Notes under the pieces: model-generated | The model's database searches: none | Told to the model about the DNA's origin: nothing | Seen by the model: only the letters and a program-made list of their open reading frames with translations | Shown here: piece by piece, positions 5,301 to 59,907 of the stretch | Position numbering within the stretch: position 1 is the stretch's first letter | Layout: the number at the start of each line of letters is the position of its first letter | Made by a program: the position numbers and the translations under genes | DNA from: a virus | Taxonomy: Duplodnaviria > Caudoviricetes | Virus record (IMG/VR): IMGVR_UViG_3300024344_000009 | Location: 1-59,911 of that record | DNA length: 59,911 nucleotides | Strand: one strand, 5' to 3'

Positions 5301-6386
5301 TTATTTGGTTACTTTGCTTTTTCGTTTCACTGTAGTTTTTTTTGTGGTTTCGCCTTGTTCACTAGATTCTTCTTCTTCTAATAATTTCGCAACATCAAGG
5401 AAACTTTCTGTTTTCTCTTCTGCTAACGGCAACAATATATCTACATATTTTGTTACATTCTTTGCCTGAAATTTTTCACCTGTTGTTGGCATCGTATACC
5501 ATGAACCAGCTTTCTTCAAAATACCCAAATCAACACATGAATCTACAAAACCAGAATATGCATTCATTCCTTTTTCATATGGTACTTCTATAGTAATTGT
5601 TTGGAATGGTTTTGTGAAACGTGTTTTATATCCTTCTGCTTTCATTCGTATGCCTGTTACTTCCGTACCTTCTTTTAACTTCAATTTTGTCAATAAAAGA
5701 ATTTGTGATAAAGAAAACTTAATAGCATCATTTATTTTCCATAATCCTTCACCATTATAAATATCTTGGTTTGCATAAACCTGTGAAGTAACTACTATAG
5801 ATATATTATACCGTTTAATGGCCTGAACGAATGTTCTAAGTGTTCCTTTTAACTGTTTTGCCCGTTGACCTTGATCACCCTTGGTTTCACCTTTTTTGAA
5901 GTTACTTTCTTCGGAATCAGTCATTAACATATCTAAAGAATCTATAAATATAACTACTTTCTGTGCATCTGCATCATCACCAAACTCTGTAGCATATCCT
6001 TTAATAAAGGGCGAAATTAACTTAGTTAAATCTGAAATTAGTGTTACTTCATAATAAAGATAATTTTTATTATTAACGTCAACACCAACTTTTGTAACAA
6101 ATTCTTCATCAAGTGCATTTTCCGAATCCATTACAACAATAATAGTATCCGGTTCAGTTTTTTGAATATTTGCTATTATATTTGCCGTAAGAAAACTTTT
6201 ACCGGCACCTGATGGGCCAGCCAATGCAGTTACGCGTCCTTGTGATATTCCTTTATAGAAACTACCAGAAATAATTCGATTTAATGTGTAATTGCCTGTT
6301 CCAAACCAATAACGCGGGGGCAATCCCTTTCCCGCTTCGAATCCTACCTTTTCAACATCTTTTTTTATATTTGTGAGAAAACTCAT
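5301..6386 (-). CDS. uvsX: UvsX/RecA-like recombinase
   Basis: LNRIISG, GPSGAGKS, DSENALD, IFIDSL, DQGQRAK, KTRF. Confidence 0.93.
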   Translation of the reverse strand: MSFLTNIKKDVEKVGFEAGKGLPPRYWFGTGNYTLNRIISGSFYKGISQGRVTALAGPSGAGKSFLTANIIANIQKTEPDTIIVVMDSENALDEEFVTKVGVDVNNKNYLYYEVTLISDLTKLISPFIKGYATEFGDDADAQKVVIFIDSLDMLMTDSEESNFKKGETKGDQGQRAKQLKGTLRTFVQAIKRYNISIVVTSQVYANQDIYNGEGLWKINDAIKFSLSQILLLTKLKLKEGTEVTGIRMKAEGYKTRFTKPFQTITIEVPYEKGMNAYSGFVDSCVDLGILKKAGSWYTMPTTGEKFQAKNVTKYVDILLPLAEEKTESFLDVAKLLEEEESSEQGETTKKTTVKRKSKVTK

Positions 6387-6403
6387 AACTCATCCTAATA
6401 ACA

Positions 6404-6433
6404 GTGATAGGGGCAAACTTTGGCCCCTATCAC
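6404..6433 (-). terminator. hairpin between ssb and uvsX (partial terminator or 3' stabiliser)
   Basis: GTGATAGGGGC...GCCCCTATCAC 11-bp stem, weak U tail. Confidence 0.65.
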
Positions 6434-6447
6434 GGAGTTATGCCTGA

Positions 6448-7341
6448 TTAGGCTTCTTTTTTAGCTCTGCGATTGCGGATTGTAGCCAACACATTATCAA
6501 CTTCTGTGTCTTCTTCATCTTCATCTTCTTTTACATCTTCATCAACTTCTACTGTAGACTTCGATTTCGATTTCGATTTACTAACAACAATAACATCATC
6601 ATCGTCTGCTTCTTCGTCGTCTGCTTCTTCGTCGTCAAGAACAACTTCACCCAACGCGGATGCAAGAAGACCTTGTGTAACTTCCAAACCTGGATTATTA
6701 GGAATAAAACTTGAAAGTGAAACCAAGTTTTCTTCAATATACGCTTGAATTTCTTCATCTAAATCAGTAGCTTTACGTGCGAACATCGAAGAAGTATAAT
6801 TTGGATATTCACCAACCATTGTTTTATTGATTAAAAAGTCACAACCACCTTCAAAAAGATATGGCAACTCTTCCAAACCACCTTTTTCAATGCCAGTTTT
6901 TAACGCATTGTAAATCTGTGTACGTAATACAATAGGCATTACTTTACCTTCAAAATTTTCGCCTGTTTCAGAATCCTTTTCTAATGGATCCTTTATTACC
7001 AATACTTGCCCTACAAATTCACGCTTTTTCCAATATTTAGGACCATTTATAGAATCCTCGCCTTCATCTTTATAAAACTTACGTGAAGCTTCGCAAATTG
7101 GGCATTCCATATCATACATAGATAAACATGGTGTTGATTTAAACTGCCCATTTATTGTAAGATTATGTGTTACGCGTTGAACCAAAAAACCACGCGGATT
7201 ATCTGCATCTACATCAGGAAGAAACCGAACTCTTGCTTGCTGTTCTTCGGTTATTGTATGAAATGGATAATACTTAGATGACCCTACTGATTGTGTGTTT
7301 TTACTAAGAGCTTTTTGCAACTCTGCAATTGACTGTAACAT
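6448..7341 (-). CDS. ssb: T4 gp32-like ssDNA-binding protein
   Basis: VRFLP, H..CxxxxxxxCPIC Zn site, GCDFLINK..YPNY, acidic tail; start moved to 7341 by AAGGAGA SD. Confidence 0.9.
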   Translation of the reverse strand: MLQSIAELQKALSKNTQSVGSSKYYPFHTITEEQQARVRFLPDVDADNPRGFLVQRVTHNLTINGQFKSTPCLSMYDMECPICEASRKFYKDEGEDSINGPKYWKKREFVGQVLVIKDPLEKDSETGENFEGKVMPIVLRTQIYNALKTGIEKGGLEELPYLFEGGCDFLINKTMVGEYPNYTSSMFARKATDLDEEIQAYIEENLVSLSSFIPNNPGLEVTQGLLASALGEVVLDDEEADDEEADDDDVIVVSKSKSKSKSTVEVDEDVKEDEDEEDTEVDNVLATIRNRRAKKEA

Positions 7342-10527: not shown

Positions 10528-11433
10528 ATGAGAAAATTAACTACATCAGAATTCATCAAAAAAGCAAACCAAATTCATAATAATTATTATAATTATTCAA
10601 AAAGTAAATATGTAAATGCTCATACTAAAATAAAAATTATTTGTCCTAAACATGGGGAATTCTGGCAAAAACCCAATAATCATATACATTTAAAACAAAA
10701 ATGTGCTAAATGTATAGGGCAATATAAACCATCAACCAAAGAGTTTATTCAAAAAGTAAAAAAAATTCATAATAATAAATATGATTATTCTTTAGTAATT
10801 TATAAACATAATCGTCATAAAATAAAAATTATTTGTCCGCATCATGGTATATTTTTACAAGAACCAAGTTCACATTTACGCGGACAAAATTGCCCATATT
10901 GTACTAATAAAAAAATTGATTTTATTAACCTAGCAAATAAAACTCATAATAATAGGTATAAATATCCTAACAAATATATCAATTCACAAACTAAAATAAA
11001 AATTATTTGTGAAGTACATGGTGCTTTTTATCAACGACCATGTGATCATATTAATAAAAAAACAAATTGCCCTACATGTGCAAGGGGGAATTATTCACAA
11101 AAAGCAATATCTTGGTTAGAATCAATTATTAAAACAGAAAATATTCATATTCAACACGCAGAGAACAAAGGTGAATATAATATTCCAACTACAAAATATA
11201 AAGCTGATGGATATTGTGAAATCAATAATACAATATATGAATTCTATGGTGATTGTTGGCATGGCAATTTGGAATTATATAAAGAAGATGAACAATGTCA
11301 TCCATTTTCTGATGAATGTGCCGGTAGCTTATATATAAAAACAATGCAACGTGAACAAGTAATAAAAAATTTAGGTTATAATTTAATCACTATTTGGGAA
11401 AATGATTATGGTCTAAAAGTTCGTTCTCTATAA
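10528..11433 (+). CDS. family A endonuclease: 3 Zn-binding (DUF723-like) repeats + Vsr-like nuclease
   Basis: ICxxHGxFxQxxxxH..CxxC repeats; ADGY..IYEFYGDxWHG..GYNLITIWE. Confidence 0.8.
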   Translation: MRKLTTSEFIKKANQIHNNYYNYSKSKYVNAHTKIKIICPKHGEFWQKPNNHIHLKQKCAKCIGQYKPSTKEFIQKVKKIHNNKYDYSLVIYKHNRHKIKIICPHHGIFLQEPSSHLRGQNCPYCTNKKIDFINLANKTHNNRYKYPNKYINSQTKIKIICEVHGAFYQRPCDHINKKTNCPTCARGNYSQKAISWLESIIKTENIHIQHAENKGEYNIPTTKYKADGYCEINNTIYEFYGDCWHGNLELYKEDEQCHPFSDECAGSLYIKTMQREQVIKNLGYNLITIWENDYGLKVRSL

Positions 11434-16526: not shown

Positions 16527-18659
16527 TTAAGCCACTCTAAAAATTGTAATACCAGCATCCCACATACTAGAATTTGTACCAGCCGAATCAGTTCTAAAAT
16601 CTAATGTGTATGTTTTTACACCAGCAGTTAATGTTCTATAATATACTCTATGTGCTAAATATCTTTGACTAGATCCTGTTGTGCTAAATGAACCAGCAGA
16701 ATCTTTAGGTTCTTGTTTATGAATTTCGCCTATATTAACAGCATCTTCTCTTACTCTAGCTTCAAAATCATTACCATTTGCGTTATGATTCCACCCGTAA
16801 GAAACTTCTATTCTATAAGTTCCAGCAGGTAAAGATGGTGTTACCATTGTTACTTTATTCAAAAACGCAGTACTAGTCGTTGTAGTAACTGTTAATGATT
16901 CTGCATGTTGATATTCAGATCCAAATATTGGAGAAAATGTTATATCTGCTACACCAAGACCAGCATCTAAAGCTGTTATATCAGTACCAACAAAATTAAG
17001 TTCAGTATGAGGTGTATTTGTTAGATTAACGCCCTCTTCTTTTACTATAATAGAAGATCCAGAACCCGGTGGTCCAGCAATACCATCAGCCCCTTTTGTA
17101 CCTTGCATTCGTATAACTGTAAAGTTATGACCCAATGAAAATACATTACCATTACCACTAGCTCGTACTTGTAATGTTATGAAATCCCCCGCTGTTAAAT
17201 TAGCAGGAAATACACAACTAACAGCATTTATTTCATCATCTTCACTAATTGTTCGTTCAGAACAAGGTAAAACTGAAGTATCATTCAAACGAACTCTAAA
17301 ATCAAATGTTTCTTCACCTGGATCTGCATCAATAGATAATGAATATGTAATTAAATATAATCCAGTTTCTTTTATATCAATATTATCAGTATTTGTATTA
17401 TTATGCTCAATTACAGCAGGATCAGTTTCTATATCAGTTGTATTCCATGTTACATCTGTATAAGTTAATGGTAAATTAAATGTTGTTGTTCTTGATACAC
17501 ATGCTGATGCTAAATCACCTACTGGCACCGATGATGCTATTGTTAATATATCACCTGTTATACTAGTTGTTATACCAGTTCCACCAGAAATAGTTAAAGT
17601 ATCTTGTGGAATATCGGGGGTTGTTGAACCACTATCAGCAATAATATTACTCCATTTTGCTGCTTGTATCCAAATACTACCATTATAAAAATTAAATTCT
17701 GATGCATTATTATCAAAAACAACCCATGCTAATTCTGGTACATAATCTATCCAATCAGATGTACTAGAACGATATTCAACAATCCTATTATCAAGTCCTG
17801 TCCAAACACCTATAGCACTAGGTGCAACAATATATCTATCACCATTAGATGGTGTCAATATTGATGGATCTGTAACTACTCGTGATAATACATTTCTTTT
17901 CCAATTAGTATTCGTACCTACATCATATCCGCCATTACCTGCGGTCAAAATAGATATATCTGATGATGAAATCGCAGTTTCGTTTAATCTGGGCGGATAA
18001 TTTAAAACTAAAAATTCAGTGGATGATGTTGCAAAACCCATTACTTTCATTACTTCACCAGCACCAGTAGGTGCAATTTCTGTAATTTTACCTGCTATTT
18101 TAGTACTTAAAAAATAAATTTGTCCTGTAATCAATGCTAAACCACTTTCAACAATTATTGGATTTACATTAACAATAGTACCACCAGCACCAACCATAAT
18201 ATAAATATTATCAACATCTATAACTTCTTGAACTATAGCCGCACTAGAAGAATTGGCTATATTATCAGCGGTTGCTAATATTAATGTATTTGTAATATTA
18301 TCAAATTTTACTACATTACCTTTCATAAAACCATGTGCAGTTTGGGTAAATTTTATAGAAAATCTTCTTCTACTACTAAGCCAAAATCCATCATCACTAT
18401 CATTTGATACATCATGAATAATATAATCTTTTCCTTGAATAATATTTGTTATATCTTGTATTCCATCATTAACTACTAAATTACCAGATGCTATACCCGA
18501 CAATAATACTGAATCAGATCGCAAATCTACAGAAGTATAAACAGAAAGATCTATAATTCCAGGTGTTACTGGACTTCCAACACCAGCAGGTACAGTTTCA
18601 CCTATAGATAGTAATTCTATATCAGATAAAGTGGTGTTTTTTATAATTATAGTTTTCAC
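16527..18659 (-). CDS. modular fibre protein (DUF2793-like, C1q/BclA-like, collagen run)
   Basis: PSNGDRYIV..W.G.DNRI, IKETGLYLI, GTKGADGIAGPPG. Confidence 0.7.
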   Translation of the reverse strand: MKTIIIKNTTLSDIELLSIGETVPAGVGSPVTPGIIDLSVYTSVDLRSDSVLLSGIASGNLVVNDGIQDITNIIQGKDYIIHDVSNDSDDGFWLSSRRRFSIKFTQTAHGFMKGNVVKFDNITNTLILATADNIANSSSAAIVQEVIDVDNIYIMVGAGGTIVNVNPIIVESGLALITGQIYFLSTKIAGKITEIAPTGAGEVMKVMGFATSSTEFLVLNYPPRLNETAISSSDISILTAGNGGYDVGTNTNWKRNVLSRVVTDPSILTPSNGDRYIVAPSAIGVWTGLDNRIVEYRSSTSDWIDYVPELAWVVFDNNASEFNFYNGSIWIQAAKWSNIIADSGSTTPDIPQDTLTISGGTGITTSITGDILTIASSVPVGDLASACVSRTTTFNLPLTYTDVTWNTTDIETDPAVIEHNNTNTDNIDIKETGLYLITYSLSIDADPGEETFDFRVRLNDTSVLPCSERTISEDDEINAVSCVFPANLTAGDFITLQVRASGNGNVFSLGHNFTVIRMQGTKGADGIAGPPGSGSSIIVKEEGVNLTNTPHTELNFVGTDITALDAGLGVADITFSPIFGSEYQHAESLTVTTTTSTAFLNKVTMVTPSLPAGTYRIEVSYGWNHNANGNDFEARVREDAVNIGEIHKQEPKDSAGSFSTTGSSQRYLAHRVYYRTLTAGVKTYTLDFRTDSAGTNSSMWDAGITIFRVA

Positions 18660-20051
18660 TTATCCTCTCCATTTTATATATAATACAGCCACGACATCTT
18701 TAGAACTCGATCCAGTACCACCTCTTAGTTGTACCAAATCACCAGCGACTACATCTACATTTGTTGTTGTATCAGAAAAATCGGAACTGCTAGGAAAAAG
18801 AATTATATTACTTGTATTTAATACACTATTAACATATAAATTAACTGCTCTGGTAGTAGTGCTACTAGATGAATGTGCTGTCGCCTTAACAATGGTTCCA
18901 TCATGTGGGATAATATAACCCGCAGTGCTATCTTTTGCAGAAGCTATATCCATCCACGTATTATTGTTTAACTCTTTATTATCGAATGTATGTGTTGTTG
19001 TTTCTATAGATAATATTTTATTTGATCGTGTTGTATCGATAAAAGTTGGAACTGGTTGACCATTTATAGTAGTTATTGTAACACCACCAGAAGTAGAATT
19101 AATAGTTATCTCATTTACATCACTAGTCAATGTAATATTCGTACCAGCAACCAAACTCTTCAAACGTATATCAGAACCTACCTTTGCACTGAAAATGCCT
19201 TCACCAGCCCCTAAATTCGATGTAGTATTAATTTCAGCCGTCGTATTGATAGTTATAGCTTCATTACCAGCAGGGTTTGTTTCTACTACACTAATTAATG
19301 TTCCACCTAATACTTTATTAAGTAAAAACCCAGCCGTCGTATCATCAGCACTTACTTTAACCAATTCATCATTAGAACCAGCCAAAGTTGCAAATGTAAG
19401 GTTTCCTGCACCATCAGTTTGAATTACTTGACCAACAGTTCCATCACCGTCCGGCATTATATAAGGAGATGGTGATGGCGATCCGATAGTTACATTTCGG
19501 AAACTTACATTATTAAGTGTTATAACATCACCATTGCCAGCATTATTAAATAACATGTCAACACCAGTAACAGAATCAATAAGAATATTTCCTGTTGTTT
19601 CATCAAAAACTTCTGTATAAACAATACTAGATGAAGAATTTTCTAAATTTATTCCAGTAGTACTCGTTCCCGTGGGCGACTTTAATGTTAATATAGAATT
19701 CCCAGTAACAGGAAATATGTTTAAATTGCCAGTCATTGTATCACCAGCAACATTAACTTTAGCATCTAATTCTGCTTGTAAATCAGTTTGATTAGATACT
19801 ATTCCTGTTATATCACCCCATGCAACACTACCAGTAACACCGTTTAATGTCCATCCTGTATCCGGTGCGGAATTTTTAGAATAGATAGATCCATCTCTAC
19901 GTAAATACAAAGAACCAATAGGGGCTTCAAATCCTCCAATAGTAGGATCTATAGAACCTTGTACAATTAAAACAGCATCAACCTGCAACCCACTAGGATC
20001 TTGTAGTGCTATCCAATTATCTATCTCAAATGCATTATCAATATTTGCCAC
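18660..20051 (-). CDS. fibre protein
   Basis: APIGSLYLR, NQTDLQAELDAKV..GDTMTGNL, LKSLVAGTNITL. Confidence 0.7.
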   Translation of the reverse strand: MANIDNAFEIDNWIALQDPSGLQVDAVLIVQGSIDPTIGGFEAPIGSLYLRRDGSIYSKNSAPDTGWTLNGVTGSVAWGDITGIVSNQTDLQAELDAKVNVAGDTMTGNLNIFPVTGNSILTLKSPTGTSTTGINLENSSSSIVYTEVFDETTGNILIDSVTGVDMLFNNAGNGDVITLNNVSFRNVTIGSPSPSPYIMPDGDGTVGQVIQTDGAGNLTFATLAGSNDELVKVSADDTTAGFLLNKVLGGTLISVVETNPAGNEAITINTTAEINTTSNLGAGEGIFSAKVGSDIRLKSLVAGTNITLTSDVNEITINSTSGGVTITTINGQPVPTFIDTTRSNKILSIETTTHTFDNKELNNNTWMDIASAKDSTAGYIIPHDGTIVKATAHSSSSTTTRAVNLYVNSVLNTSNIILFPSSSDFSDTTTNVDVVAGDLVQLRGGTGSSSKDVVAVLYIKWRG

Positions 20052-20067
20052 AAGGCTGTATCCTTTA

Positions 20068-21558
20068 TTATGCTAACAAACTTACGCCAATTCGCTTAAT
20101 AGTAAATGTTATAGTAGCTACCGTTGCTGGATTAACAGTTAACTGCATATCTGCACCACTCATAGAAACATCAATAGCCACATTTAACCCAGTTTGTGTT
20201 CCAACACGAAGTCCAGAAAATCTATTAAAATCACTAATCGTACCGTCATTCATTGCATGAATTTCCCATGCACGTCTTCCACTAGTAACAGTATTCTTTA
20301 ATTGAAGCAACCACTTAACCTCGTTTCCTTCAGCAGCAGTAATTGTATCAAGTACATTAACCGTACTAATAGTAAGAGGTCCACCTGTAATTTCTAGGTT
20401 ACTTTCATTAAGACTTCCTACTTCTTGATTAATAGCATCAAAGTTTTGTTGTATATTATTAGTAGCCAATTGTGATTGTGTTAGAAAACCACCAGTAGTC
20501 CATGTACCGGCGGTATTAAGATCACCAAGTTCTACATCAATAGCTTCTAACGATGCAGTAGTAGTTTGACCATCAGTAATGATATTATCTACTGAATAAA
20601 CCCTATCACCAATAGCATTATTAAGTGCATTTAATGCGTCAGTAATAGTTAATGTACCTGCCGCATTCCATATCATTTCATCTGTTAATGCAAAATTTAC
20701 TGCAATATTGTTTATTAAGCCATCACCATAAGTAGCATCTATTTCACCAATAGCAGTAGTTACATCAAACGTTGAAGTAGGATGTGCATCACTAAAATCA
20801 GTAACAACATTATTACTTCCATAAATCAATGTACCTAACGCATCATCAAGTTTTGAAATGCCAGTATCTAATGGATCATTATCAACTATAATATCATTTG
20901 AATCATATTGGGGGAAAACTGCACCAGAACCAACAGGTTTACCAATAAAATTTTCGATATCAGTGATAGCCGCAGCAGAACCAGCAGAACCAAATTGTAT
21001 CCAAGCAGTACCATCATATATCCATTGTTGGTCAGCATGTGTTCCTTGGTTTACGAGAACTGCATCCCCATCCGTAGCTAAATTAGTGTCTTCCGTAAAT
21101 GTCCATGCACCAGTACCACCAGATACGATATATACATTATCATTACCCGTTGTTAAATCACTAAAAAGTAATCTATCACCCGATACTATTGTAATACCAT
21201 CAACAGTATCACCAACGTTAGCTGCGGATTCTGCGGCTGCAATATTAGCATATGTAGTCTGGTCTAAAACTTTTACTGGTTCACGCCAAGAAACACCAGA
21301 AACTAACGCATCTACATAACTTTTTGAAGCTGTTTGATTCCAATCACTGGAAATACCTAAATTCGTGTGTTTGTACCAAAAATTTAACAAATCAGTATCA
21401 GCATCAGTCTGCATATATACAGAGCCAATAGGTGCGGCCAATGTACGCCCAACATTACCTACCGGGGCACCATTGCCATGTAAAATATGTGCCTCTACGG
21501 AAAAATCGTCTTCAACGATTGCTAACCCATGTGTTGCACGAAATAAATTAATTGCCAT
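20068..21558 (-). CDS. fibre/structural protein
   Basis: APIGSVYMQ, ASKSYVD..WREPV, repeated ISKLD/LNALN helical segments. Confidence 0.7.
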   Translation of the reverse strand: MAINLFRATHGLAIVEDDFSVEAHILHGNGAPVGNVGRTLAAPIGSVYMQTDADTDLLNFWYKHTNLGISSDWNQTASKSYVDALVSGVSWREPVKVLDQTTYANIAAAESAANVGDTVDGITIVSGDRLLFSDLTTGNDNVYIVSGGTGAWTFTEDTNLATDGDAVLVNQGTHADQQWIYDGTAWIQFGSAGSAAAITDIENFIGKPVGSGAVFPQYDSNDIIVDNDPLDTGISKLDDALGTLIYGSNNVVTDFSDAHPTSTFDVTTAIGEIDATYGDGLINNIAVNFALTDEMIWNAAGTLTITDALNALNNAIGDRVYSVDNIITDGQTTTASLEAIDVELGDLNTAGTWTTGGFLTQSQLATNNIQQNFDAINQEVGSLNESNLEITGGPLTISTVNVLDTITAAEGNEVKWLLQLKNTVTSGRRAWEIHAMNDGTISDFNRFSGLRVGTQTGLNVAIDVSMSGADMQLTVNPATVATITFTIKRIGVSLLA

Positions 21559-21643: not shown

Positions 21644-24076
21644 ATGTATAATTTATTTAAACTATCTAAAAAAACGGCGTATTTAGGCAATCACATTCGC
21701 AAGAACGGAACTCTATATAATGAATATTTGGAACTACTGGAATTTACTAATTTTCTTCCCGTAAATACATCAGTCAAAGAAAGACTTTATTATGTAGAAC
21801 ATAATATTAATAAAATCGTTAAATGTCATACTTGTGAAAAAAAGGCAAATTGGTCTAATAGGGGTAAAAATAAAAATACATATAAAAAATATTGTTCTGT
21901 ATGTGCATATAAATCACCAGAACGATATAAAAAAATAAAACAAACTAATTTAAATAGATATGGTGTCGAAAATGTATTACAATCAAAAGAAGTTAAAGAT
22001 AAAATCAAACAAACCAACTTAGAAAGATATGGCGTTGAGCATGCATTACAATCAAAAGAAGTTAAAGATAAAATCAAAAAAACCAACTTAGAAAGATATG
22101 GCGTTGAGCATACATTACAATCAAAAGAAGTTAAAGATAAAATCAAACAAACCAACTTAGACAAGTATGGTGTTGAACATGCATTACAATCAGAAGAAAT
22201 TAAAGATAAAATCAAACAAACCAACTTAGACAAGTATGGTGTTGAACATGCATTACAATCAGAAGAAATTAAAGATAAAATCAAACAAACCAACTTAGAC
22301 AAGTATGGTGTTGAACATGCATTACAATCAGAAGAAATTAAAGATAAAATCAAAAAAACCAACTTAGATAAATATGGTGTCGAACATCCTTCACAATCAA
22401 AAGAAGTTAAAGATAAAATCAAACAAACCAACTTAGAAAGATATGGCGTTGAGCATACATTACAATCAGAAGAAGTTAAAGATAAAATAAAACAAACCAA
22501 CTTGGATAAATATGGCGTCGAACATGCATTACAAAATAAAGAAATTCAAGATAAAATGAAGAAAACCATGTTAATTAATCATGGTGTCGAACATGCATTA
22601 CAATCAAAAGAAGTTAAAGATAAAATCAAACAAACCAACTTAGACAAGTATGGTGTCGAAAATCCTTCACAATCAAAAGAAGTTAAAGATAAAATCAAAA
22701 AAACCAACTTAGATAAATATGGTGTCGAAAATGTATTGCAATCAGAAGAAGTTAAAGATAAAATCAAAAAAACCAACTCAGATAAATATGGTGTCGAACA
22801 TCCTTCACAATCAAAAGAAGTTAAAGATAAAATCAAACAAACCAACTTAGAAAGATATGGCGTTGAGCATACATTACAATCAGAAGAAGTTAAAGATAAA
22901 ATCAAACAAACCAACTTGGATAAATATGGCGTCGAAAATCCTTCACAATCAAAAGAAGTTAAAGATAAAATCAAACAAACCAACTTAGATAAATATGGTG
23001 TCGAAAATGTATTGAAATCAAAAGAAGTTAAAGATAAAATAAAACAAATTGTAAGTAAAAAGGGATATATAAAAAAACAAAAACTAGCAAAAAGCTTAAA
23101 TCTAACATTACTAAAACATAATAATATAACTAAAGAAGTTACATACCGATGTAATACATGTAACACAGTTAGAACAACAATATATCCCTACTTACGGTGC
23201 ATAACATGTTTTCCTTATAATATTTCATCTGGTGAAAAAGAAGTACTAGAATTTATTAAAAATTCTTACAAAGGAAATATTATTTGTAATTCCAGGGCTA
23301 TTATACCTCCATTTGAATTAGATATATATCTTCCAGAAAAAAACATAGCAATTGAATATGATGGATTATATTGGCATTCTGAATTAGCGGGCAAAGACAA
23401 ACACTATCATATAAGCAAAACAAATTTATGTTTAGAGAGGGGTATTCAATTATTTCATATATTTGAGAATGAATGGATACAGTCCCCGACACAAAATATT
23501 TGGAAATCTATTATTAGTAATAGATTGTATAATTCAAAACGAATATTTGCTCGAAAATGCCAAGTAAGGGAAATTTCTTTTACGGAAACGAAAGAATTTT
23601 TAATTAAAAATCATTTACAAGGAACAATAAATTCAAAAATTAATTTAGGATTAATTTATCATGATGAAATAGTTGCCGTTATGACATTTAGTAAGCCGAG
23701 ATATAATAAAAACTATTCGTGGGAATTATTACGTTTTTGTAATAAATTAAATTATAATACTATAGGTGGTGCTAGTAAATTGCTAAAATATTTTACAAAA
23801 CGCTATAAAGGTACTATAATTAGTTATGCAGATTTACGTAGGGGGAATGGAAAATTATATGAAAAGCTTGGATTTAATAAAATGCATATATCGCCAGCAA
23901 ATTTCTTTTATTTTAAAAATATAAATCACTTACATTCGAGATTAGAATTTCAAAAATACAAATTAGCTAAAAAATTAAAAACATTTGATCCCACATTAAC
24001 GGGTTGGGAAAATATGCAAAATAATGGATGGAATAGGATTTGGGATTGTGGTAATATAGTATTTACACTAAATTAG
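21644..24076 (+). CDS. family B (Hef-like) endonuclease: 16 x 23-aa YGV repeats + Zn ribbon + Vsr-like nuclease + GNAT/Mom-like domain
   Basis: ELDIY..IAIEYDGLYWHS..HIFENEW; ARKC..NHLQG..ELLRF..GGASKL..SYAD..WDCG. Confidence 0.8.
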   Translation: MYNLFKLSKKTAYLGNHIRKNGTLYNEYLELLEFTNFLPVNTSVKERLYYVEHNINKIVKCHTCEKKANWSNRGKNKNTYKKYCSVCAYKSPERYKKIKQTNLNRYGVENVLQSKEVKDKIKQTNLERYGVEHALQSKEVKDKIKKTNLERYGVEHTLQSKEVKDKIKQTNLDKYGVEHALQSEEIKDKIKQTNLDKYGVEHALQSEEIKDKIKQTNLDKYGVEHALQSEEIKDKIKKTNLDKYGVEHPSQSKEVKDKIKQTNLERYGVEHTLQSEEVKDKIKQTNLDKYGVEHALQNKEIQDKMKKTMLINHGVEHALQSKEVKDKIKQTNLDKYGVENPSQSKEVKDKIKKTNLDKYGVENVLQSEEVKDKIKKTNSDKYGVEHPSQSKEVKDKIKQTNLERYGVEHTLQSEEVKDKIKQTNLDKYGVENPSQSKEVKDKIKQTNLDKYGVENVLKSKEVKDKIKQIVSKKGYIKKQKLAKSLNLTLLKHNNITKEVTYRCNTCNTVRTTIYPYLRCITCFPYNISSGEKEVLEFIKNSYKGNIICNSRAIIPPFELDIYLPEKNIAIEYDGLYWHSELAGKDKHYHISKTNLCLERGIQLFHIFENEWIQSPTQNIWKSIISNRLYNSKRIFARKCQVREISFTETKEFLIKNHLQGTINSKINLGLIYHDEIVAVMTFSKPRYNKNYSWELLRFCNKLNYNTIGGASKLLKYFTKRYKGTIISYADLRRGNGKLYEKLGFNKMHISPANFFYFKNINHLHSRLEFQKYKLAKKLKTFDPTLTGWENMQNNGWNRIWDCGNIVFTLN
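21930..23045 (+). repeat. 69-bp coding tandem repeat, 16 units
   Basis: Unit KIKQTNL(D/E)(K/R)YGVExxxQSxEVKD. Confidence 0.95.
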
Positions 24077-24448
24077 CATATCAATACGCACGGCATTTAC
24101 TGCTACCTGAAAACTACTATTATTTGTTATTTCTAATTCTAAGCTTCCTAAATTTATTACTACATCAACTACATGTAATATATTCGGTGTACCTACCAGT
24201 CCATATTGGTTATGATTGGGTAGTGTCCCAAATTGATGATTCGCTAATACTTCACCACTCATAACATTATTATTAATAGCAGTATTATCCATAATTGTAT
24301 AAATCCACTTAACGGAAATATTAGTTCCTACTAATAATGAATCAACCACACCTGTATTTCCTGGGTTTATAATGACTCCTTGAATACTAGCACCTGGAAT
24401 ATCTCCGCCGCCACTATCACTAACCGGCCTTGTTAATACAAATCCCAT
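24068..24448 (-). CDS. small virion protein
   Basis: Resembles C-terminal domain of 20068..21558 (VVDS..VKW..GEVLA). Confidence 0.6.
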   Translation of the reverse strand: MGFVLTRPVSDSGGGDIPGASIQGVIINPGNTGVVDSLLVGTNISVKWIYTIMDNTAINNNVMSGEVLANHQFGTLPNHNQYGLVGTPNILHVVDVVINLGSLELEITNNSSFQVAVNAVRIDMLI

Positions 24449-31488: not shown

Positions 31489-33030
31489 ATGACTGATAAG
31501 GCATTATTAAAAAAAGCAAATGAACTAATAGAATATACACCACATCAATTGCATGAACTAAAAAAATGTTCAGATGATCCCATATACTTTATCCAAACAT
31601 ATATGAAGATTCAACATCCAACTAAAGGTTCAATTCATTTCGTACCATATCCTTATCAAATAAAAGCTGTTGAAAACTTCACGATACATAAAGATAATAT
31701 CTTACTACAAGCAAGACAATCCGGTAAAACTCAAATCGTAGCAGGATACCTTTTATGGTTTGCCGCTTTTCATTTTGATAAAACCATAATGATAGTTTCT
31801 AACAAAAATACATCAGCTATGGAAATCATTCATCGTATCAAATATGGGTACGAAGAACTACCTATGTGGCTTAAACCAGGAGTTACTTCAGACGGGTGGA
31901 GTAAACATGCAGTGGCATTCGATAACGGATCACGAATCATGTCAGGTGCAACATCACCGGATTCTGGGCGTACATATTCAATATCACTTTTATTTTGCGA
32001 TGAATTTGCATTTGTTAGAGAAGGTATCCAAGAAGAATTCTGGACTGCTATAAGTCCCACACTTTCTACAGGAGGCCAGTGTATTATTGCATCTACTCCA
32101 AATGGTGATTCTAACTTATATGCAAATCTTTGGCGTGGAGCGATGTCAGGAGTAAATGGTTTTCATCCTATGAACGTTACATGGGAAGATGTTCCTACAC
32201 GTAATCAAGAATGGGCTGATAGAGAAAAGGCTAAAATTGGTGAAAGAAAATTTCGTCAAGAACATGAAACTGAATTCTTATCTGATGATCCATTATTGGT
32301 CGATACTATGTTCTTAGCACAACTTAAAATGGAAGATCCTAATTTTGTCAACAAAGAATTTAAATTTTTCGAAGATATAGAAAAACGAACTGCATACATA
32401 ATAGGCGTCGATCCTGCTACCGGTACAGGATCAGATTTTAGTACAATTGAAGTTTTTAAATTCCCTGAAATGAGGCAAGTAGCTGAGTTTAGATCAAATA
32501 GCATGTCTTCACCTATGCTGTATAAAGCAATACAAAGCATTATAAACTTTATTGATGCAAAAGGAAATGATATCTATTGGAGTTGCGAGTCAAACGGTGT
32601 TGGGGAGGGTATCATAGCATTACATGAAAACGATGAAAATCCAAATAAAAATGCTATGTTCATTTCCCAAAAAGGTGGTAAAAGATTAGGATTTACTACA
32701 ACTAACAAATCAAAAATGAAATCATGTATAGACTTCAAAGATTTGATTGAATCTAACACAATGATTATCAAATCAAAAATTCTATTAGAAGAAATGAAAA
32801 ACTTTGTTCGTAAGGGTTCTTCATATCAAGCTAAATCTGGGTCAACTGATGATTGTATATCTGGATGTCTAATTGTAACAAGAATTCTTACTGAAATATC
32901 AGAATATGAAGAAGAAGCACATGATATTCTATATAATCATAATATGGAAGATGAATGGTTTAATTCAAATGGTGAGGATTATTATAATGACAACGATCCT
33001 GATCATGCACCTAGTGGAATAGTATTTTAA
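31489..33030 (+). CDS. terL: terminase large subunit (T4 gp17-like)
   Basis: YPYQ, ARQSGKT, FCDEFAF, ASTPNG, GVDP, ESN, TDD. Confidence 0.95.
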   Translation: MTDKALLKKANELIEYTPHQLHELKKCSDDPIYFIQTYMKIQHPTKGSIHFVPYPYQIKAVENFTIHKDNILLQARQSGKTQIVAGYLLWFAAFHFDKTIMIVSNKNTSAMEIIHRIKYGYEELPMWLKPGVTSDGWSKHAVAFDNGSRIMSGATSPDSGRTYSISLLFCDEFAFVREGIQEEFWTAISPTLSTGGQCIIASTPNGDSNLYANLWRGAMSGVNGFHPMNVTWEDVPTRNQEWADREKAKIGERKFRQEHETEFLSDDPLLVDTMFLAQLKMEDPNFVNKEFKFFEDIEKRTAYIIGVDPATGTGSDFSTIEVFKFPEMRQVAEFRSNSMSSPMLYKAIQSIINFIDAKGNDIYWSCESNGVGEGIIALHENDENPNKNAMFISQKGGKRLGFTTTNKSKMKSCIDFKDLIESNTMIIKSKILLEEMKNFVRKGSSYQAKSGSTDDCISGCLIVTRILTEISEYEEEAHDILYNHNMEDEWFNSNGEDYYNDNDPDHAPSGIVF

Positions 33031-37862: not shown

Positions 37863-38789
37863 ATGCCTAAAAAATTAACAAATAAAGAATTCATTCAAAA
37901 AGCAAATAAAGTCCATAATCACAAATATTCTTATCCTGATGGATATGTCAATTCTGCAACAAAGATAAAAATTATTTGTCCAATACATGGTGCTTTTTTT
38001 CAAAAACCAAATAATCATCTATCTGGTTATAAATGTGCTAAATGTGGGAGAATAAACAGTTCATATAGTAACACCAATACACATAAAAAAACATTCTGTA
38101 AAAAAGCAAATGAAGTTCATAATAATAAATATGAATATCCTGATGAATATGTTAATGCACATACTAAACTGAAAATAATATGCCCTGTTCATGGTGCTTT
38201 TTTACAATCACCTAATGGTCATTTAGCTGGACGTGGTTGTGGTGTATGTTCTAATAATATAAAGTTAACATCAAAAAAATTTATCAAAAAAGCAAATGAA
38301 GTTCATAATAACAAATATTCTTATCCTGATGAGTATGTTAATGCACATACTAAACTGAAAATCATTTGTCCAATACATGGCGAATTCTATCAAAGACCAC
38401 ATGATCACGTACATAGTAGCCCAACCAGATGCCCCCAATGTTCTAAACGAGGTTATTCACAAAAAGCAATATCTTGGTTAAACGAAATAGCAAAAAAAGG
38501 AAATATTCATATTCAACATGCAGAGAACAAAGGTGAATATAATATTCCCACTACAAATTATAAAGCTGATGGATATTGCGAAGCCAATAATACAATATAT
38601 GAGTTTTATGGCGATATTTGGCATGGCAATTTGGAATTATATAACGAAAACGAACAATGTCATCCATTTTCTAATGAATCTGCCGGTAGTTTATATATGA
38701 AAACCATGCAACGAGAACAAATCATAAAAGATTTAGGTTATAATTTAATCACTATTTGGGAAAATGAATTTAAATGCCTAAAAAATTAA
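37863..38789 (+). CDS. family A endonuclease, 3 Zn repeats (array copy 1)
   Basis: Repeat + Vsr-like motifs. Confidence 0.8.
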   Translation: MPKKLTNKEFIQKANKVHNHKYSYPDGYVNSATKIKIICPIHGAFFQKPNNHLSGYKCAKCGRINSSYSNTNTHKKTFCKKANEVHNNKYEYPDEYVNAHTKLKIICPVHGAFLQSPNGHLAGRGCGVCSNNIKLTSKKFIKKANEVHNNKYSYPDEYVNAHTKLKIICPIHGEFYQRPHDHVHSSPTRCPQCSKRGYSQKAISWLNEIAKKGNIHIQHAENKGEYNIPTTNYKADGYCEANNTIYEFYGDIWHGNLELYNENEQCHPFSNESAGSLYMKTMQREQIIKDLGYNLITIWENEFKCLKN

Positions 38790-40435
38790 CAAATAAAGAA
38801 TTTATTGAAAAAGCAAATAAAGTTCATAATCACAAATATTCTTATCCTGATGAATATATAAATTCTGCAACAAAGATAAAAATTATTTGCCCTATTCATG
38901 GTGAATTTTTACAATCACCTAATAGTCATTTACGAAGTGAGGAATGTGCTAAATGTGGGAGAATAAACAGTTCATATAATAACATCTATAAACATAAAAA
39001 AACGTTCTATATAAAAGCAAATAAAGTTCATAATAACAAATATGAATATCCTGATGAATATGTTAATGCACATACTAAACTGAAAATAATATGCCCTGTT
39101 CATGGTGCTTTTTTACAATCACCTAATGGTCATTTACGTGGTAGTGGATGTGGTGTATGTTCTAATAATATAAAATTAACATCAAAAAAATTTATCAAAA
39201 AAGCAAATGAAGTTCATAATAACAAATATACTTATTCTGATGAATATGTTAATGCACATACTAAACTAAAAATAATATGCCCTGTTCATGGTGCTTTTTA
39301 TCAAAGACCAAACGGACACTTAGCTGGAAGTGGTTGTGTTAAATGCACAAATGTTGAAAAAATATCAACACCTGAATTCATTCAAAAAGCAAATGAAGTT
39401 CATAATAACAAATATTCTTATCCTGATGAATATGTTAATAATCATTCAAAAATAAAAATTATTTGTCCAGTACATGGCGAATTTTATCAAAAACCTAAAT
39501 ATCATTTAAAAGGTGGTGGATGTCAAATTTGTAGTGGACGTAAAAAGCCAACAACACCTGAATTCATTCTAAAAGCAAATGAAGTTCATAATAACAAATA
39601 TTCTTATCCTGATGAATATATAAATTCACAAACTAAAATAAAAATTATTTGTCCAGTGCATGGCGAATTTTATCAAAAACCTGCTAGTCATACAAATAAA
39701 AAATATGGATGTCCAAAATGTTCTAATAATAAAAAATTAACATCAGAAATATTTATCGAACACGCTAATAACATTCATAATCAGAAATATTCTTATCCTG
39801 ATGAATACATAAATTCAAAAAATAAAATAAAAATTATTTGTCCAATACATGGCGAATTTTATCAAAGACCTAATGATCATACAAATAAAGAATATGGATG
39901 CCCCCAATGTTCTAATAATAATAAAAAGTTAACAACAGAAAGATTTATCGAACACGCCAATAACATTCATAATCAGAAATATTCTTATCCTGATGAATAC
40001 ATAAATTCAAAAAATAAAATAAAAATTATTTGTCCAATACACGGTGAATTTTATCAAAGACCAAACGGACATTTAGCGGGAAATGGTTGTACTAAATGTT
40101 CATTGTGTGGATATTCAAAAGTAGCAATATCTTGGTTAAACGAAATAGCAAAAAAGGGAAATATTCATATTCAACATGCAGAGAACAAAGGTGAATATTC
40201 AATACCAGGAACAAATTATAAAGCTGATGGATATTGTGAAGCCAATAATACAATATATGAGTTTTATGGCGATATTTGGCATGGCAATTTGGAATTATAT
40301 AACGAAAACGAACAATGTCATCCATTTTCTAATGAATCTGCCGGTAGTTTATATATGAAAACCATGCAACGTGAACAAATCATAAAAAATTTAGGTTATA
40401 ATTTAATTACTATTTGGGAACATGATTTTGTCTAA
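38774..40435 (+). CDS. family A endonuclease, 7 Zn repeats (array copy 2)
   Basis: Repeat + Vsr-like motifs. Confidence 0.8.
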   Translation: MPKKLTNKEFIEKANKVHNHKYSYPDEYINSATKIKIICPIHGEFLQSPNSHLRSEECAKCGRINSSYNNIYKHKKTFYIKANKVHNNKYEYPDEYVNAHTKLKIICPVHGAFLQSPNGHLRGSGCGVCSNNIKLTSKKFIKKANEVHNNKYTYSDEYVNAHTKLKIICPVHGAFYQRPNGHLAGSGCVKCTNVEKISTPEFIQKANEVHNNKYSYPDEYVNNHSKIKIICPVHGEFYQKPKYHLKGGGCQICSGRKKPTTPEFILKANEVHNNKYSYPDEYINSQTKIKIICPVHGEFYQKPASHTNKKYGCPKCSNNKKLTSEIFIEHANNIHNQKYSYPDEYINSKNKIKIICPIHGEFYQRPNDHTNKEYGCPQCSNNNKKLTTERFIEHANNIHNQKYSYPDEYINSKNKIKIICPIHGEFYQRPNGHLAGNGCTKCSLCGYSKVAISWLNEIAKKGNIHIQHAENKGEYSIPGTNYKADGYCEANNTIYEFYGDIWHGNLELYNENEQCHPFSNESAGSLYMKTMQREQIIKNLGYNLITIWEHDFV

Positions 40436-41537
40436 AAAATTAACAACTAGTGAGTTTATTCAAAAAGCAAATAAAGTTCATAATCACAAATATACTTATC
40501 CTGATGAATATATTAATGTAAAAACTAAAATTAAAATTATTTGTCCAATACATGGTGAATTTTATCAAAGAAGTGATAATCATCTATCTGGTCAAGGCTG
40601 TCCGACATGTAGTACTAAGAAAAAGCTAAAATATAAAGAATTCATCTATCGTTCTAATGCTATACATAACAACCAATATGAATATCCTGATGAATATATC
40701 AATTCATATACTAAAGTTAGAATTATTTGTCCAGTACATGGTGATTTTTTTCAAACACCAAATAAACATTTATCTGGACATGAATGTACTTATTGCAATA
40801 AATCGGCGAAATTAACAAACGAACAATTCATTCAAAAAGCTCATACTATTCATAATAATAAATATGAATATCCTGATGAATACACAAATGCTAGGGCTAA
40901 CATTAGAATAATCTGCCCTATTCATGGTGAATTCTATCAACAATCTAGTTCACATTTATCTAAACATGGTTGCCCGTCATGTAGTAATAAAAATAAGAAT
41001 AAGAATAAGAAACTAACAACCAAAATATTTATTACGCGATCAAGCAAAATTCATAATAACAAATATGATTATCCTAATGAATATATTAATGCTAGAACTA
41101 AAATTAAAGTTATTTGTCCAATACATGGGGAATTTTATCAGCGTTCTAGCTCACATTTAAATGAGAAACAAGGTTGTCAAAAATGTACTTCTTATAAAGG
41201 ATATTCTAAAAAATCAATATCTTGGTTAAACGAAATAGCAAAAAAGGAAAATATTCATATTCACCATGCAGAGAATGGTGGTGAATATTCAATACCAAGA
41301 ACAAAATATAAAGCTGATGGATATTGCGAAGTCAATAATACGATATATGAATTCTATGGTGATTGTTGGCATGGCAATTTGGAATTATATGAAGAAGATG
41401 AACAATGTCATCCATTTTCTGATGAATGTGCCGGTAGCTTATATATAAAAACAATGCAACGTGAACAAATCATAAAAGATTTAGGTTATAATTTAATCAC
41501 TATTTGGGAGCGTGAATATAAATGCCTAAAAAATTAA
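40422..41537 (+). CDS. family A endonuclease, 4 Zn repeats (array copy 3)
   Basis: Repeat + Vsr-like motifs. Confidence 0.8.
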   Translation: MILSKKLTTSEFIQKANKVHNHKYTYPDEYINVKTKIKIICPIHGEFYQRSDNHLSGQGCPTCSTKKKLKYKEFIYRSNAIHNNQYEYPDEYINSYTKVRIICPVHGDFFQTPNKHLSGHECTYCNKSAKLTNEQFIQKAHTIHNNKYEYPDEYTNARANIRIICPIHGEFYQQSSSHLSKHGCPSCSNKNKNKNKKLTTKIFITRSSKIHNNKYDYPNEYINARTKIKVICPIHGEFYQRSSSHLNEKQGCQKCTSYKGYSKKSISWLNEIAKKENIHIHHAENGGEYSIPRTKYKADGYCEVNNTIYEFYGDCWHGNLELYEEDEQCHPFSDECAGSLYIKTMQREQIIKDLGYNLITIWEREYKCLKN

Positions 41538-42454
41538 CAAACAAACAATTTATTGAAAAAGCAAATAAAATTCATAATAACAAATATGAATATCTTGGTG
41601 AATATGTCAATTCCGAAACTAAAATAAAAATTATTTGTCAAATACATGGCGTTTTTTTTCAAACACCACACGGCCATTTATCAGGTAAAGGGTGTAAACA
41701 ATGTGGAAACCAAATAAATTCTGAAAAAAATACATTAAAATTTTCGGAATTTGTTAAAAAAGCTAACCGTATACATAATAATACATATACATATGTAGAT
41801 TATATAAATTATGTTACACCAATACCAATAATATGCTCAATACATGGTGAATTTTTACAAACACCGAAAATGCATTTTAGCGGTCAAGGCTGTAAAAAAT
41901 GCGGGTTTATTAAAACCAAAAATGCATTAACAAAAAACTTTAAGACATTTGAATCAGAAGCAAATGAAGTTCATAATAACAAATATACTTATTTTGATGA
42001 ATATGTTAATGCTCATTCAAAAATAAAAATTATTTGTCAAATACATGGTGAATTTTATCAAAGACCACATGATCACGTATCTCGTAGGCCAACCAGATGC
42101 CCCCAATGTGCCAAATCAAATTATTCACAAAAGGCAATATCTTGGTTAAACAAAATAGCAAAAAAAGAAAATATTTATATTCAACATGCAGAGAACAAAG
42201 GTGAATATTCAATACCACTAACCAAGTATAAAGCTGATGGATACTGTGAAAAAACAAATACAATTTATGAGTTTTACGGTGATAAATTTCACGGAAATTT
42301 AAAATTATTTAACGAAAATGAACAATGTCATCCATTTTCTGATGAATGTGCCGGTAGCTTATATATAAAAACAATGCAACGTGAACAAATCATAAAAGAT
42401 TTAGGTTATAATTTAATCACTATTTGGGAGCGTGAATATAAAGGGGGATGTTAA
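41522..42454 (+). CDS. family A endonuclease, 3 Zn repeats (array copy 4)
   Basis: Repeat + Vsr-like motifs. Confidence 0.8.
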   Translation: MPKKLTNKQFIEKANKIHNNKYEYLGEYVNSETKIKIICQIHGVFFQTPHGHLSGKGCKQCGNQINSEKNTLKFSEFVKKANRIHNNTYTYVDYINYVTPIPIICSIHGEFLQTPKMHFSGQGCKKCGFIKTKNALTKNFKTFESEANEVHNNKYTYFDEYVNAHSKIKIICQIHGEFYQRPHDHVSRRPTRCPQCAKSNYSQKAISWLNKIAKKENIYIQHAENKGEYSIPLTKYKADGYCEKTNTIYEFYGDKFHGNLKLFNENEQCHPFSDECAGSLYIKTMQREQIIKDLGYNLITIWEREYKGGC

Positions 42455-50433: not shown

Positions 50434-50516
50434 TGGAAATCTCCTTATATATGTTTCCATCGAGTTTTGTTTGTGCCGTGGATTCAGTAAACTCTAAACT
50501 GAACTGGCTTCAATTA

Positions 50517-58754: not shown

Positions 58755-58796
58755 TATTTATAATATATTGACATTATATAAATTTCAGTATATACT
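58755..58796. promoter_or_regulatory. late promoter (minus) back-to-back with sigma70 promoter (plus)
   Basis: TATTTATA 58755-62; TTGACA-17-TATACT 58768-96. Confidence 0.8.
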
Positions 58797-58815
58797 ATTA
58801 AGTGAGAGTGAAAAA

Positions 58816-59907
58816 ATGTCTAAAAAACTAACAAATACTGAATTTCTTGAAAAATGTAAAAATATACATGGTGATAAGTACACTTATCCTGATGAATATG
58901 TGAATGCTATAACACCCATTAGAATAATTTGCCCTATACATGGTGAATTTTATCAAAGTCCTAATGGTCATACATCTGGAAGAGGTTGTAAAAACTGCAA
59001 TAAAACAAAAACATTAACAACAAAGGAATTTATTAATAAAGCAAATAAAGCCCATAATAACAAATATGATTATCCCGATGAGTACATTTGTAACAAAGAT
59101 AAAATAAGAATTATATGCCCAAAACACGGTGAATTCTTTCAACGTTCCAGTTCACACTTAGGAAAAAGTGGATGTCCTAAATGTAATAAATCAAAAAAAT
59201 TAACAACAAAAGAATTTATTAATAAAGCTAATACTGTTCATAATAACAAATATGATTATCCTGATAAATATGTGAATTCTATAACGTCTATTAGAATTAC
59301 ATGTCCAATACATGGAGAATTTAAACAAAACCCTGGTAGTCATTTGTCAGGAAAAGGCTGTTCAAAATGTAAAATAGAAATTGCTAAAATAACAAAAACA
59401 CATGACCAATTTTTAAATGATGCATGTTTAATACATGGTGAAAAATACACATATCCAGTCCAATATACACATTCCTGTAAAAAAATAAAAATTATATGCC
59501 CAATACATGGAGAATTCTTTCAGCGACCCAAATCACATACATGTGATAGAAATGGATGTCCCCAATGTTTTAATACACCACACTATTCACAAAAGGCAAT
59601 ATCTTGGTTGGACTCAATAATGAATACTGAAGGAATATTCATTCAACATGCAGAGAATGATGGTGAATATTCAATACCAGGAACAAAATACAAAGCTGAT
59701 GGATATTGTGAAGCCAATAATACAATTTATGAGTTTTACGGTGATAAATTTCACGGAAATTTAAAATTATTTAACGAAAATGAACAATGTCATCCATTTT
59801 CTGATGAATCTGCCGGTAGTTTATATATAAAAACAATGAAACGTGAACAAATCATAAAAAAATTAGGTTATAATTTAATTACTATTTGGGAACATGATTT
59901 TGTCTAA
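58816..59907 (+). CDS. family A endonuclease, 4 Zn repeats
   Basis: MSKKLT start matches paralogs; TTG 58768 is the -35 box. Confidence 0.8.
   Translation: MSKKLTNTEFLEKCKNIHGDKYTYPDEYVNAITPIRIICPIHGEFYQSPNGHTSGRGCKNCNKTKTLTTKEFINKANKAHNNKYDYPDEYICNKDKIRIICPKHGEFFQRSSSHLGKSGCPKCNKSKKLTTKEFINKANTVHNNKYDYPDKYVNSITSIRITCPIHGEFKQNPGSHLSGKGCSKCKIEIAKITKTHDQFLNDACLIHGEKYTYPVQYTHSCKKIKIICPIHGEFFQRPKSHTCDRNGCPQCFNTPHYSQKAISWLDSIMNTEGIFIQHAENDGEYSIPGTKYKADGYCEANNTIYEFYGDKFHGNLKLFNENEQCHPFSDESAGSLYIKTMKREQIIKKLGYNLITIWEHDFV

Follow-up and report, generated by a model that had tools for sequence, protein, structure and literature searches.

A probable Hef-type homing endonuclease gene carrying a sixteen-unit DUF7487 repeat array in a fragment of a jumbo-sized phage

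The repeat-bearing gene and its predicted protein

The window analysed here is the complete IMG/VR record IMGVR_UViG_3300024344_000009, a stretch of 59,911 bases which, with a CheckV completeness of 18 %, is regarded as a fragment of a jumbo-sized phage. At 21644-24076 on the plus strand it holds an open reading frame (ORF) of 810 amino acids (aa), with its frame intact, that contains the whole of a tandem repeat array. Tandem Repeats Finder (TRF) placed the array at 21932-23048 (period 69, 16.2 copies, 87 % matches, 0 % indels, score 1567), and anchoring on the motif [YH]GV resolved it into 16 units at an exact spacing of 23 aa, or 69 bp (aa 97-464, nucleotides (nt) 21932-23035). From the ORF list, its match to PHROG 3339 and tblastn, the gene is probably a free-standing homing endonuclease gene of the Hef type (Vsr-like, 'EDxHD' lineage) with a predicted DNA-holding repeat arm, in which the small vocabulary of variable loop residues stems from recent unit duplication and is not a code. 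All features of this gene described below lie on the plus strand.

A first-pass annotation of the window had described near-identical 69-bp units fused to a nuclease, and both parts of that description were borne out, the 16 units standing in strict register in the TRF output and in the unit table. Its sixteen loop triplets, located after YGVE (NVL, HAL, HTL, HAL, HAL, HAL, HPS and HTL in units 1-8; HAL, HAL, NPS, NVL, HPS, HTL, NPS and NVL in units 9-16), match letter for letter, all 12 five-residue loops that it quoted for the paralog starting at 54736 are correct, and its unit counts of 16, 12, 8, 6, 4 and 0 belong to g21644 (the present gene), g54736, g50564, g43220, g52375 and g44987, respectively, each gene being named by its start position. 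The description of the repeat as Lys-rich holds for lysine content, lysine making up 20 % of the repeat residues.

An AlphaFold2 (AF2) model was built on a 120-homolog alignment and had a mean predicted local distance difference test (pLDDT) score of 87.3. The modelled domain order is a zinc ribbon, 16 DUF7487 repeats, a second zinc ribbon, a Vsr-like nuclease and a Mom-like GNAT domain. The N-terminal four-cysteine zinc ribbon (C61, C64, C84 and C87; 21824-21904) was located from the alignment and from short strands in the model; its four cysteines are each at least 90 % conserved among the 120 sequences, and we infer that it binds metal. The repeats themselves (21932-23035) are recognized by TRF, the unit table, Pfam and the model alike. 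A second four-cysteine zinc ribbon (C503, C506, C519 and C522; 23150-23209), visible as CxxC…CxxC in the family consensus and with model strands at residues 498-503 and 509-513, lies between the array and the nuclease, and the two ribbons bracket the array.

The Vsr-like (EDxHD-type) nuclease domain (23216-23551) was placed by VIA-align and by conservation. Its structural matches to Vsr 1cw0_A (Z 8.7, root-mean-square deviation (rmsd) 2.5, 104 residues aligned, model residues 525-733) and to 3hrl_A (Z 8.7, rmsd 2.1, 89 residues aligned, region 525-630) have middling scores, yet each spans a whole small domain. All 120 homologs have D560 and K592, and conservation is 90 % or more at E558, E571, H578 and H589; E558, D560, E571, H578 and H589 probably correspond to the E-D-x-H-D active-site positions. 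The Pfam family MTES_1575 matched this domain at E 0.0032, below its cut-off.

The C-terminal tail (23552-24073, aa 637-810), placed by Foldseek and VIA-align, is in the model a Mom/GNAT fold. Foldseek gave phage Mu Mom (8bv8_A) as the best match (E 1.2e-05), and VIA-align superposed the domain on 8bv8_B with Z 9.6, rmsd 2.8 and 140 residues aligned, many GNATs being similar at Z 9-9.8. The tail appears to keep four residues essential in Mu Mom: in an hhalign comparison of the family alignment with that protein (E 0.0028, probability 11 %), R697, S711, D730 and R732 stand opposite R111, S124, D149 and R151, and the available text of one report states that mutating the latter abolishes or greatly reduces Mu Mom activity (PMC13219725). 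A BLASTP alignment with Mu Mom spans the counterparts of D149 and R151 only (E 2.7), and a Pfam search at E ≤ 10 gave no Mom match in the tail. The C-terminal 174 residues thus share the GNAT/Mom fold of Mu Mom (PDB 8BV8), but here the domain is fused behind a nuclease and the sequence similarity is marginal.

With Pfam, the protein matched DUF7487 (PF24308) at E 1.5e-95 and 319.7 bits, against a gathering cut-off of 27, with the match limited to profile positions 1-118 of 220, i.e. the repeat part. Proteins P0251, P0257 and P0258 were matched over positions 1-220, including the C-terminal ~100 positions that the present protein does not have, and because some relatives match all 220 positions the Pfam entry is taken to bundle the repeat with another domain. 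The protein also matched the PHROGs 'homing endonuclease' families 3339 (E 1.2e-206) and 12131 (E 2e-97), and tblastn matched 437 phage records, none at more than 60 % identity. The best of these included copies from Campylobacter phages (IBB_35, CP220 and CPt10) and Klebsiella phages (RaK2 and K64-1) that carry the annotation 'Hef' or 'homing endonuclease'; the 'Hef' of vB_CcoM-IBB_35 matched at 41.2 % identity (E 4e-91) and the annotated Campylobacter phage copies at about 38-41 %. Compared with Hef and 'Hef-like' genes as a group (U5 Hef; CP220, CPt10, vB_CcoM-IBB_35, RaK2, K64-1 and Dickeya phage LIMEstone1), the gene shows 35-44 % identity over 78-97 %, falls in the same PHROGs, and is likewise free-standing beside conserved virion or replication genes. 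It differs from them in a best identity of 44 % (tblastn) to 50 % (alignment), in a unit number at the upper limit of those seen (16 units recur in 2 of the 137 new top-scoring representatives, and none of these exceeds 16), and in units that are unusually alike.

The family is very large. Profile scoring placed at least 7441 of the 8000 scored proteins at E ≤ 1e-10, and a two-unit repeat profile, searched against 1.84 billion representatives, reached 23,612 representative clusters at E ≤ 0.001, of which 16,849 passed E ≤ 1e-10. The gene is a divergent, ordinary member of this catalogued family of selfish phage nucleases. A separate search, in which 688 of 8000 scored candidates were at E ≤ 1e-5, listed short DUF7487-only proteins (120-201 aa; P0126, P0163, P0227 and others) on contigs of 280-711 kb, which would be stand-alone DUF7487 arrays or decayed gene remnants. 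Cluster labels in the ESM Atlas pair DUF7487 arrays with DUF559 and DNA methylase domains, a tentative lead only, and an ESM Atlas feature search gave a best score of 0.76, under the useful range. No other named DNA-acting domain was found in a Pfam scan of ten long representatives that have no Hef tail. Megablast against the phage collection gave no match for the gene or for a 9.6-kb neighbouring block, an NCBIfam scan gave nothing meaningful, and the whole protein compared with PDB sequences had a best E of 0.34.

Repeat units and the origin of the loop words

In the AF2 model each repeat begins its 15-residue helix at unit position 19 and ends it at position 10 of the following unit; the four residues G-V-E-x then make a loop, and positions 15-17 a 3-residue turn. 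The pLDDT is about 91-94 over most units and below 50 at residues 308-320, in the region of units 9-10. Variation across the family was measured on 1213 units from 119 homologs, a set that leans to long arrays because it was picked by score against the 16-unit query; 1027 of the unit spacings in the homologs are exactly 23 aa. The most conserved unit positions are K1, T5, Y10 and G11, followed by K3 and L7, and the most variable are 16, 2, 19, 15 and 14, with 4 and 23 about equal to 14-16. Within arrays, mean entropy is 1.0-2.0 bits at most positions and 1.85-2.18 bits in loop 14-16, which positions 2, 19, 23 and 4 rival. Within the present gene, variation peaks at position 15 (1.94 bits), and positions 8, 9, 19, 4, 14, 16 and 21 vary too. 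The earlier claim that few parts vary as much as the loop behind YGV therefore stood, whereas a near-invariant scaffold with variation in the loop only did not. The array is the most uniform of 116 arrays with at least 6 units, its mean unit identity being 78 % against a median of 46 %, and for that reason its clean look of a scaffold plus a word is a local peculiarity.

The pairs of positions with the highest mutual information are 15-21, 18-21, 13-17 and 15-18, and the 13-17 pair is E-Q in 570 and D-K in 95 of 1190 units. Position 15 is mostly P, A, V, S or T. Small or hydrophobic residues predominate at positions 15 and 16, and these covary with helix position 21, itself hydrophobic, which gives them the appearance of packing residues. 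Loop residues behave largely as packing or capping residues, though they may tune DNA preference. Two possible kinships of the repeat were considered and discarded. NUMOD3 (PF07460) scored 11.2 bits (E 0.36) on three units and 9.5 bits (E 0.107) in a record-wide scan, both below the cut-off of 20.4, and the unit is not counted as a NUMOD3 relative. A relationship with the ~75-bp extragenic repeats of CP220, as they are described in the accessible part of the source (PMC2853527), was dropped, none of these being present at the CP220 Hef-like locus examined.

At the DNA level the 16 units form about five groups, with 0-2 nt differences within groups and 7-16 of 69 between them. No base differs among units 4, 5 and 6, or between units 8 and 14; a single nt separates unit 7 from unit 13, and within the set 2, 3, 8 and 14 no two units are more than 2 nt apart. 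Codons 11-13 (G, V and E) vary synonymously only (GGT/GGC, GTC/GTT and GAA/GAG), whereas codons 14-16 vary non-synonymously, and linked synonymous markers in codons 8-13 co-segregate with the loop words. Because these silent markers travel with the words, the words are read as haplotypes of a few recently copied parental units, copied singly or in blocks (7-8 and 13-14; 11-12 and 15-16). What the first-pass annotation had called a small reusable vocabulary is better explained by recent unit duplication, given the linked synonymous markers and the identical units, and would be the trace of the recent duplication of about five parental units.

Units 9-10 (22484-22621) form an odd pair (…NKEIQD / KMKKTMLINHGV…), marked out by unit comparison and by the dip in the AF2 model. 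Unit 10 is 5 nt from a unit of the paralog g50564 and at least 11 nt from every unit of its own gene, and the stretch NKEIQD-KMKKTMLINHGVEHALQ is common to units 9-10 and to three g50564 units (51113-51388), while the catalytic parts of the two genes are only 54 % identical. Since the nearest relative of unit 10 is a g50564 unit, the comparison suggests that units moved between the two genes. The array would change through slippage or unequal recombination that adds, removes or swaps whole 69-bp units, some of the swaps being with paralogs of the same genome.

Paralogs and genomic setting

Seven genes of Hef architecture, totalling 12,789 bases, lie in the window. Because the paralogs carry 0 to 16 units, the array is regarded as an add-on module. 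Four or five of them have a helix-turn-helix/NUMOD1-like element, below cut-off at a best E of 0.0025, in the stretch that joins array and nuclease, and g43220 scores above the Pfam Mom cut-off (33.6 vs 27.1 bits). The seventh gene, g46140 (46140-48197, minus strand), has the same layout of zinc ribbon, nuclease and Mom-like domain (Pfam Mom E 1.1e-05), and the slot for DUF7487 is occupied by nine 23-aa repeats of another kind (TGLT..QEIGLK...), which an hhalign comparison shows to be unrelated to DUF7487 (probability 0.16 %) and which had no Pfam match.

The neighbours of the gene are virion genes. PHROG matches at 16527-21558 include tail fibre, baseplate and 'head decoration' proteins, and a terminase large subunit (31489-33030) and a tail sheath gene (48292-50460) were identified in the same way. 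The gene lies between a 'head decoration'-like structural gene (20068-21558, minus strand; PHROG 2647, E 4e-14) and g24068 (24068-24448, minus strand; 126 aa), which was taken from the ORF list, had no PHROG match, and by tblastn matched positions 5636-5980 of the record L001 at 38 % identity. The 3' end of g24068 overlaps that of the nuclease gene by 9 bases, and the nuclease gene is oriented opposite to both flanking genes. L001 was the sole relative found (protein identity about 35-50 %), and in it only 14 bases separate the counterparts of the two flanking genes (5636-5986 and 6001-7236), the nuclease gene being absent from that spot. From this comparison, the gene would have been inserted between two virion genes, which is the signature of a free-standing mobile nuclease. 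The Hef-type genes g50564 and g52375 lie in tandem (50564-53946, plus strand) beside the tail sheath gene, which is on the minus strand, and the Hef-like gene CPT_0054c of CP220 also adjoins a tail sheath gene (L002 2791-6286); the tail sheath gene may be a recurrent target. A promoter/terminator scan of the AT-rich region gave nothing informative, and no RNA run is listed among the sequencing runs that match the window.

A second family of repeat genes, presumably the one termed 'Family A' in the first-pass annotation, comprises six genes on the plus strand (10528-11433, 37863-38789, 38774-40435, 40422-41537, 41522-42454 and 58768-59907; 6,684 bases in total). Each has 3-8 copies of a ~62-aa cysteine/histidine module (TRF period 186-189) ahead of a shared ~120-aa C-terminal domain. 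Together with the Hef-type genes they occupy about a third of the 59,911 bases.

Readings of the array and of the enzyme

By analogy, the repeat array is most likely a DNA-holding arm. This view is drawn from its place in the architecture together with the precedent of I-Bth0305I, from the weak helix-turn-helix/NUMOD1-like element that paralogs carry beside the nuclease, and from the strong conservation of helix lysines, a threonine and an asparagine in the unit. The text available from Taylor et al. (PMC3239194) assigns Hef-type homing endonucleases of bacteriophages to the Vsr-like family with I-Bth0305I as prototype, and gives that enzyme a footprint of about 60 bp, made through N-terminal arms, with modest specificity. 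As in I-Bth0305I, described in the same text, the Vsr-like catalytic domain is here C-terminal to a modular N-terminal region, DNA-binding in that enzyme and predicted to be so here; I-Bth0305I differs in being intron-encoded, in using NUMOD motifs, and in having neither a DUF7487 array nor a Mom-like tail. In the proposed mechanism the gene would have entered the genome of an uncultured jumbo phage between two virion genes, in the orientation opposite to theirs, and the zinc ribbons and repeat array would form a long modular DNA-holding arm. That arm would place the nuclease near the gene's own insertion point in genomes without the gene, where cutting and recombinational repair would then copy the gene in.

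A TALE-like programmable reader, in which each unit contacts a fixed number of base pairs, the word of one to three residues after YGV sets the base, and the order of units spells a target that could be re-ordered, is considered very improbable, although the strict 23-aa register with its 1027 exact spacings, the high variability of loop 14-16 within arrays and within the gene, the non-synonymous change in codons 14-16 beside synonymous change in codons 11-13, the fusion to a nuclease, and the array lengths that differ between paralogs all speak for it. The TAL effector unit has 33-35 residues and two helices, with variation confined to its specificity residues, whereas the DUF7487 unit has 23 aa and a single 15-residue helix. 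TALEs and TALENs resemble the array in being tandem helical repeats in strict register that are prone to recombination, the nuclease fusion here being a natural one, but the DUF7487 scaffold is not invariant, its variability is not confined to two residues, and there is no sequence relation, no TALE family being found in Pfam at E ≤ 0.1. The analogy of a near-invariant scaffold with specificity words, as first put forward, was not supported, since the scaffold varies and 376 distinct loop triplets occur among the 1213 units; variability at positions 2, 19, 4 and 23 is close to that of the loop, and typical unit identity within arrays is only 46 %. The linkage of words to synonymous markers and the identity of whole units are what duplication predicts, and the covariation of position 15 with helix positions 21 and 18, and of 13 with 17, resembles structural contacts. 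An equality-pattern search of the window for 16-mers in which equal words see equal bases gave 0 exact matches, 6 with one violation (6.8 in shuffles) and 155 with two (147.9 in shuffles), none near the gene, a weak test because the genome that carries the gene need not keep the target. A related and similarly far-fetched proposal is that DUF7487 arrays are a modular DNA-recognition scaffold with one unit per short DNA step, in which the exposed position 14 (N/H/Y/S/C) and its neighbours bias base preference, and that phages retarget it by shuffling units within and between paralogs, the shuffling being suggested by units 9-10; if true, programmable nucleases would gain a compact repeat platform of a new kind.

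That the repeats neither read nor hold DNA, and act instead as a rod for oligomerisation, as a ruler or spacer, or as a passenger prone to slippage whose changes in length have no effect, while recognition lies in the ribbons, the nuclease and the Mom-like domain, seems quite unlikely. The unit number of 0 to 16 within one genome and the fresh duplications in the present array fit such a role, as do the near-neutral charge of the array and the intact repeat-free paralog discussed below, but K1, K3, T5, L7, Y10 and G11 are strongly conserved over the 1213 units, codons 11-13 are under purifying selection, the repeat has been retained in the 23,612 representative clusters, and the array always occupies the slot in which modular homing enzymes such as I-Bth0305I and I-TevI carry their DNA-binding modules. 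A further alternative, held to be unlikely but deserving attention, is a restriction-modification-like 'cut and mask' enzyme, acting instead of or besides homing, in which the Mom-like domain acylates the phage's own adenines at sites chosen by the arm and the nuclease attacks unmodified host or competitor DNA. Fusions of Mom with restriction-fold nucleases in jumbo phages were predicted by Aravind's group, in the part of their paper available, to modify self and cut others (PMC7824862), and the clear Mom-like fold match, the alignment of R697, S711, D730 and R732 with essential Mom residues, the Mom score of g43220 and the presence of seven paralogs with different arms within 60 kb agree with that prediction. 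Against it stand the weakness of the Mom alignment (hhalign 11 %, BLASTP E 2.7), the missing Pfam match for the gene's own tail, and the insertion between conserved virion genes, which fits homing; moreover, the founding Hef, that of phage U5, is cited in the available text of PMC2988022 as a homing-type endonuclease that cleaves nrdB. No test of the predicted DNA modification was found in the literature searched.

Several observations weigh against a homing endonuclease with a DNA-holding arm. In the reading of the Aravind group the fused nuclease and Mom form a restriction-modification-like pair rather than a homing enzyme. Repeats are absent from the paralog g44987, whose nuclease and tail are intact, and the array is near neutral in charge (K+R 78, D+E 68, net +10 over 368 aa). 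A prediction on repeats only (7 units, 17-row alignment) reached a pLDDT of 38.4, and when PDB sequences were searched with the two-unit repeat profile, the top match (E 0.024) was a chance-like one of 16 residues. The searches of PDB sequences and of the literature turned up neither a solved structure of DUF7487 repeats nor a paper describing them, although supplements (e.g. that of PMC7824862) could hold domain tables. The empty site comes from a single distant relative, L001. The assembly of the array also calls for caution. The Logan runs X1 and X2 contained 93 % of the sampled words and may be from the source sample; there a 10,630-base contig ends at 22005 and the next long contig begins at 22977, and no contig spanning the array was found in runs X1-X3. 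The pieces listed inside the array are 54-87 bases long in X1 and X2 and 53-165 across X1-X3, and in X1 and X2 their depth is as much as about 3 times that of the flanks. The array at 21900-23100 is collapsed in short-read assemblies, and because the Logan contigs break at both of its edges, the number and order of units come from the original assembly alone.

For a Hef-type homing endonuclease with a repeat arm, the window adds a clean case of array growth by unit duplication, a likely exchange of units between paralogs, and, in g46140, a different 23-residue repeat in the same slot. Tens of thousands of protein clusters contain the DUF7487 repeat, which is catalogued as a domain of unknown function. 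With a long, near-uniform array and six paralogs with other arms within 60 kb, the gene at 21644-24076 is a convenient test object. A map of the contacts between repeat and DNA would account for site choice by these very common homing enzymes and would decide between a simple DNA clamp and a reader that can be retargeted.

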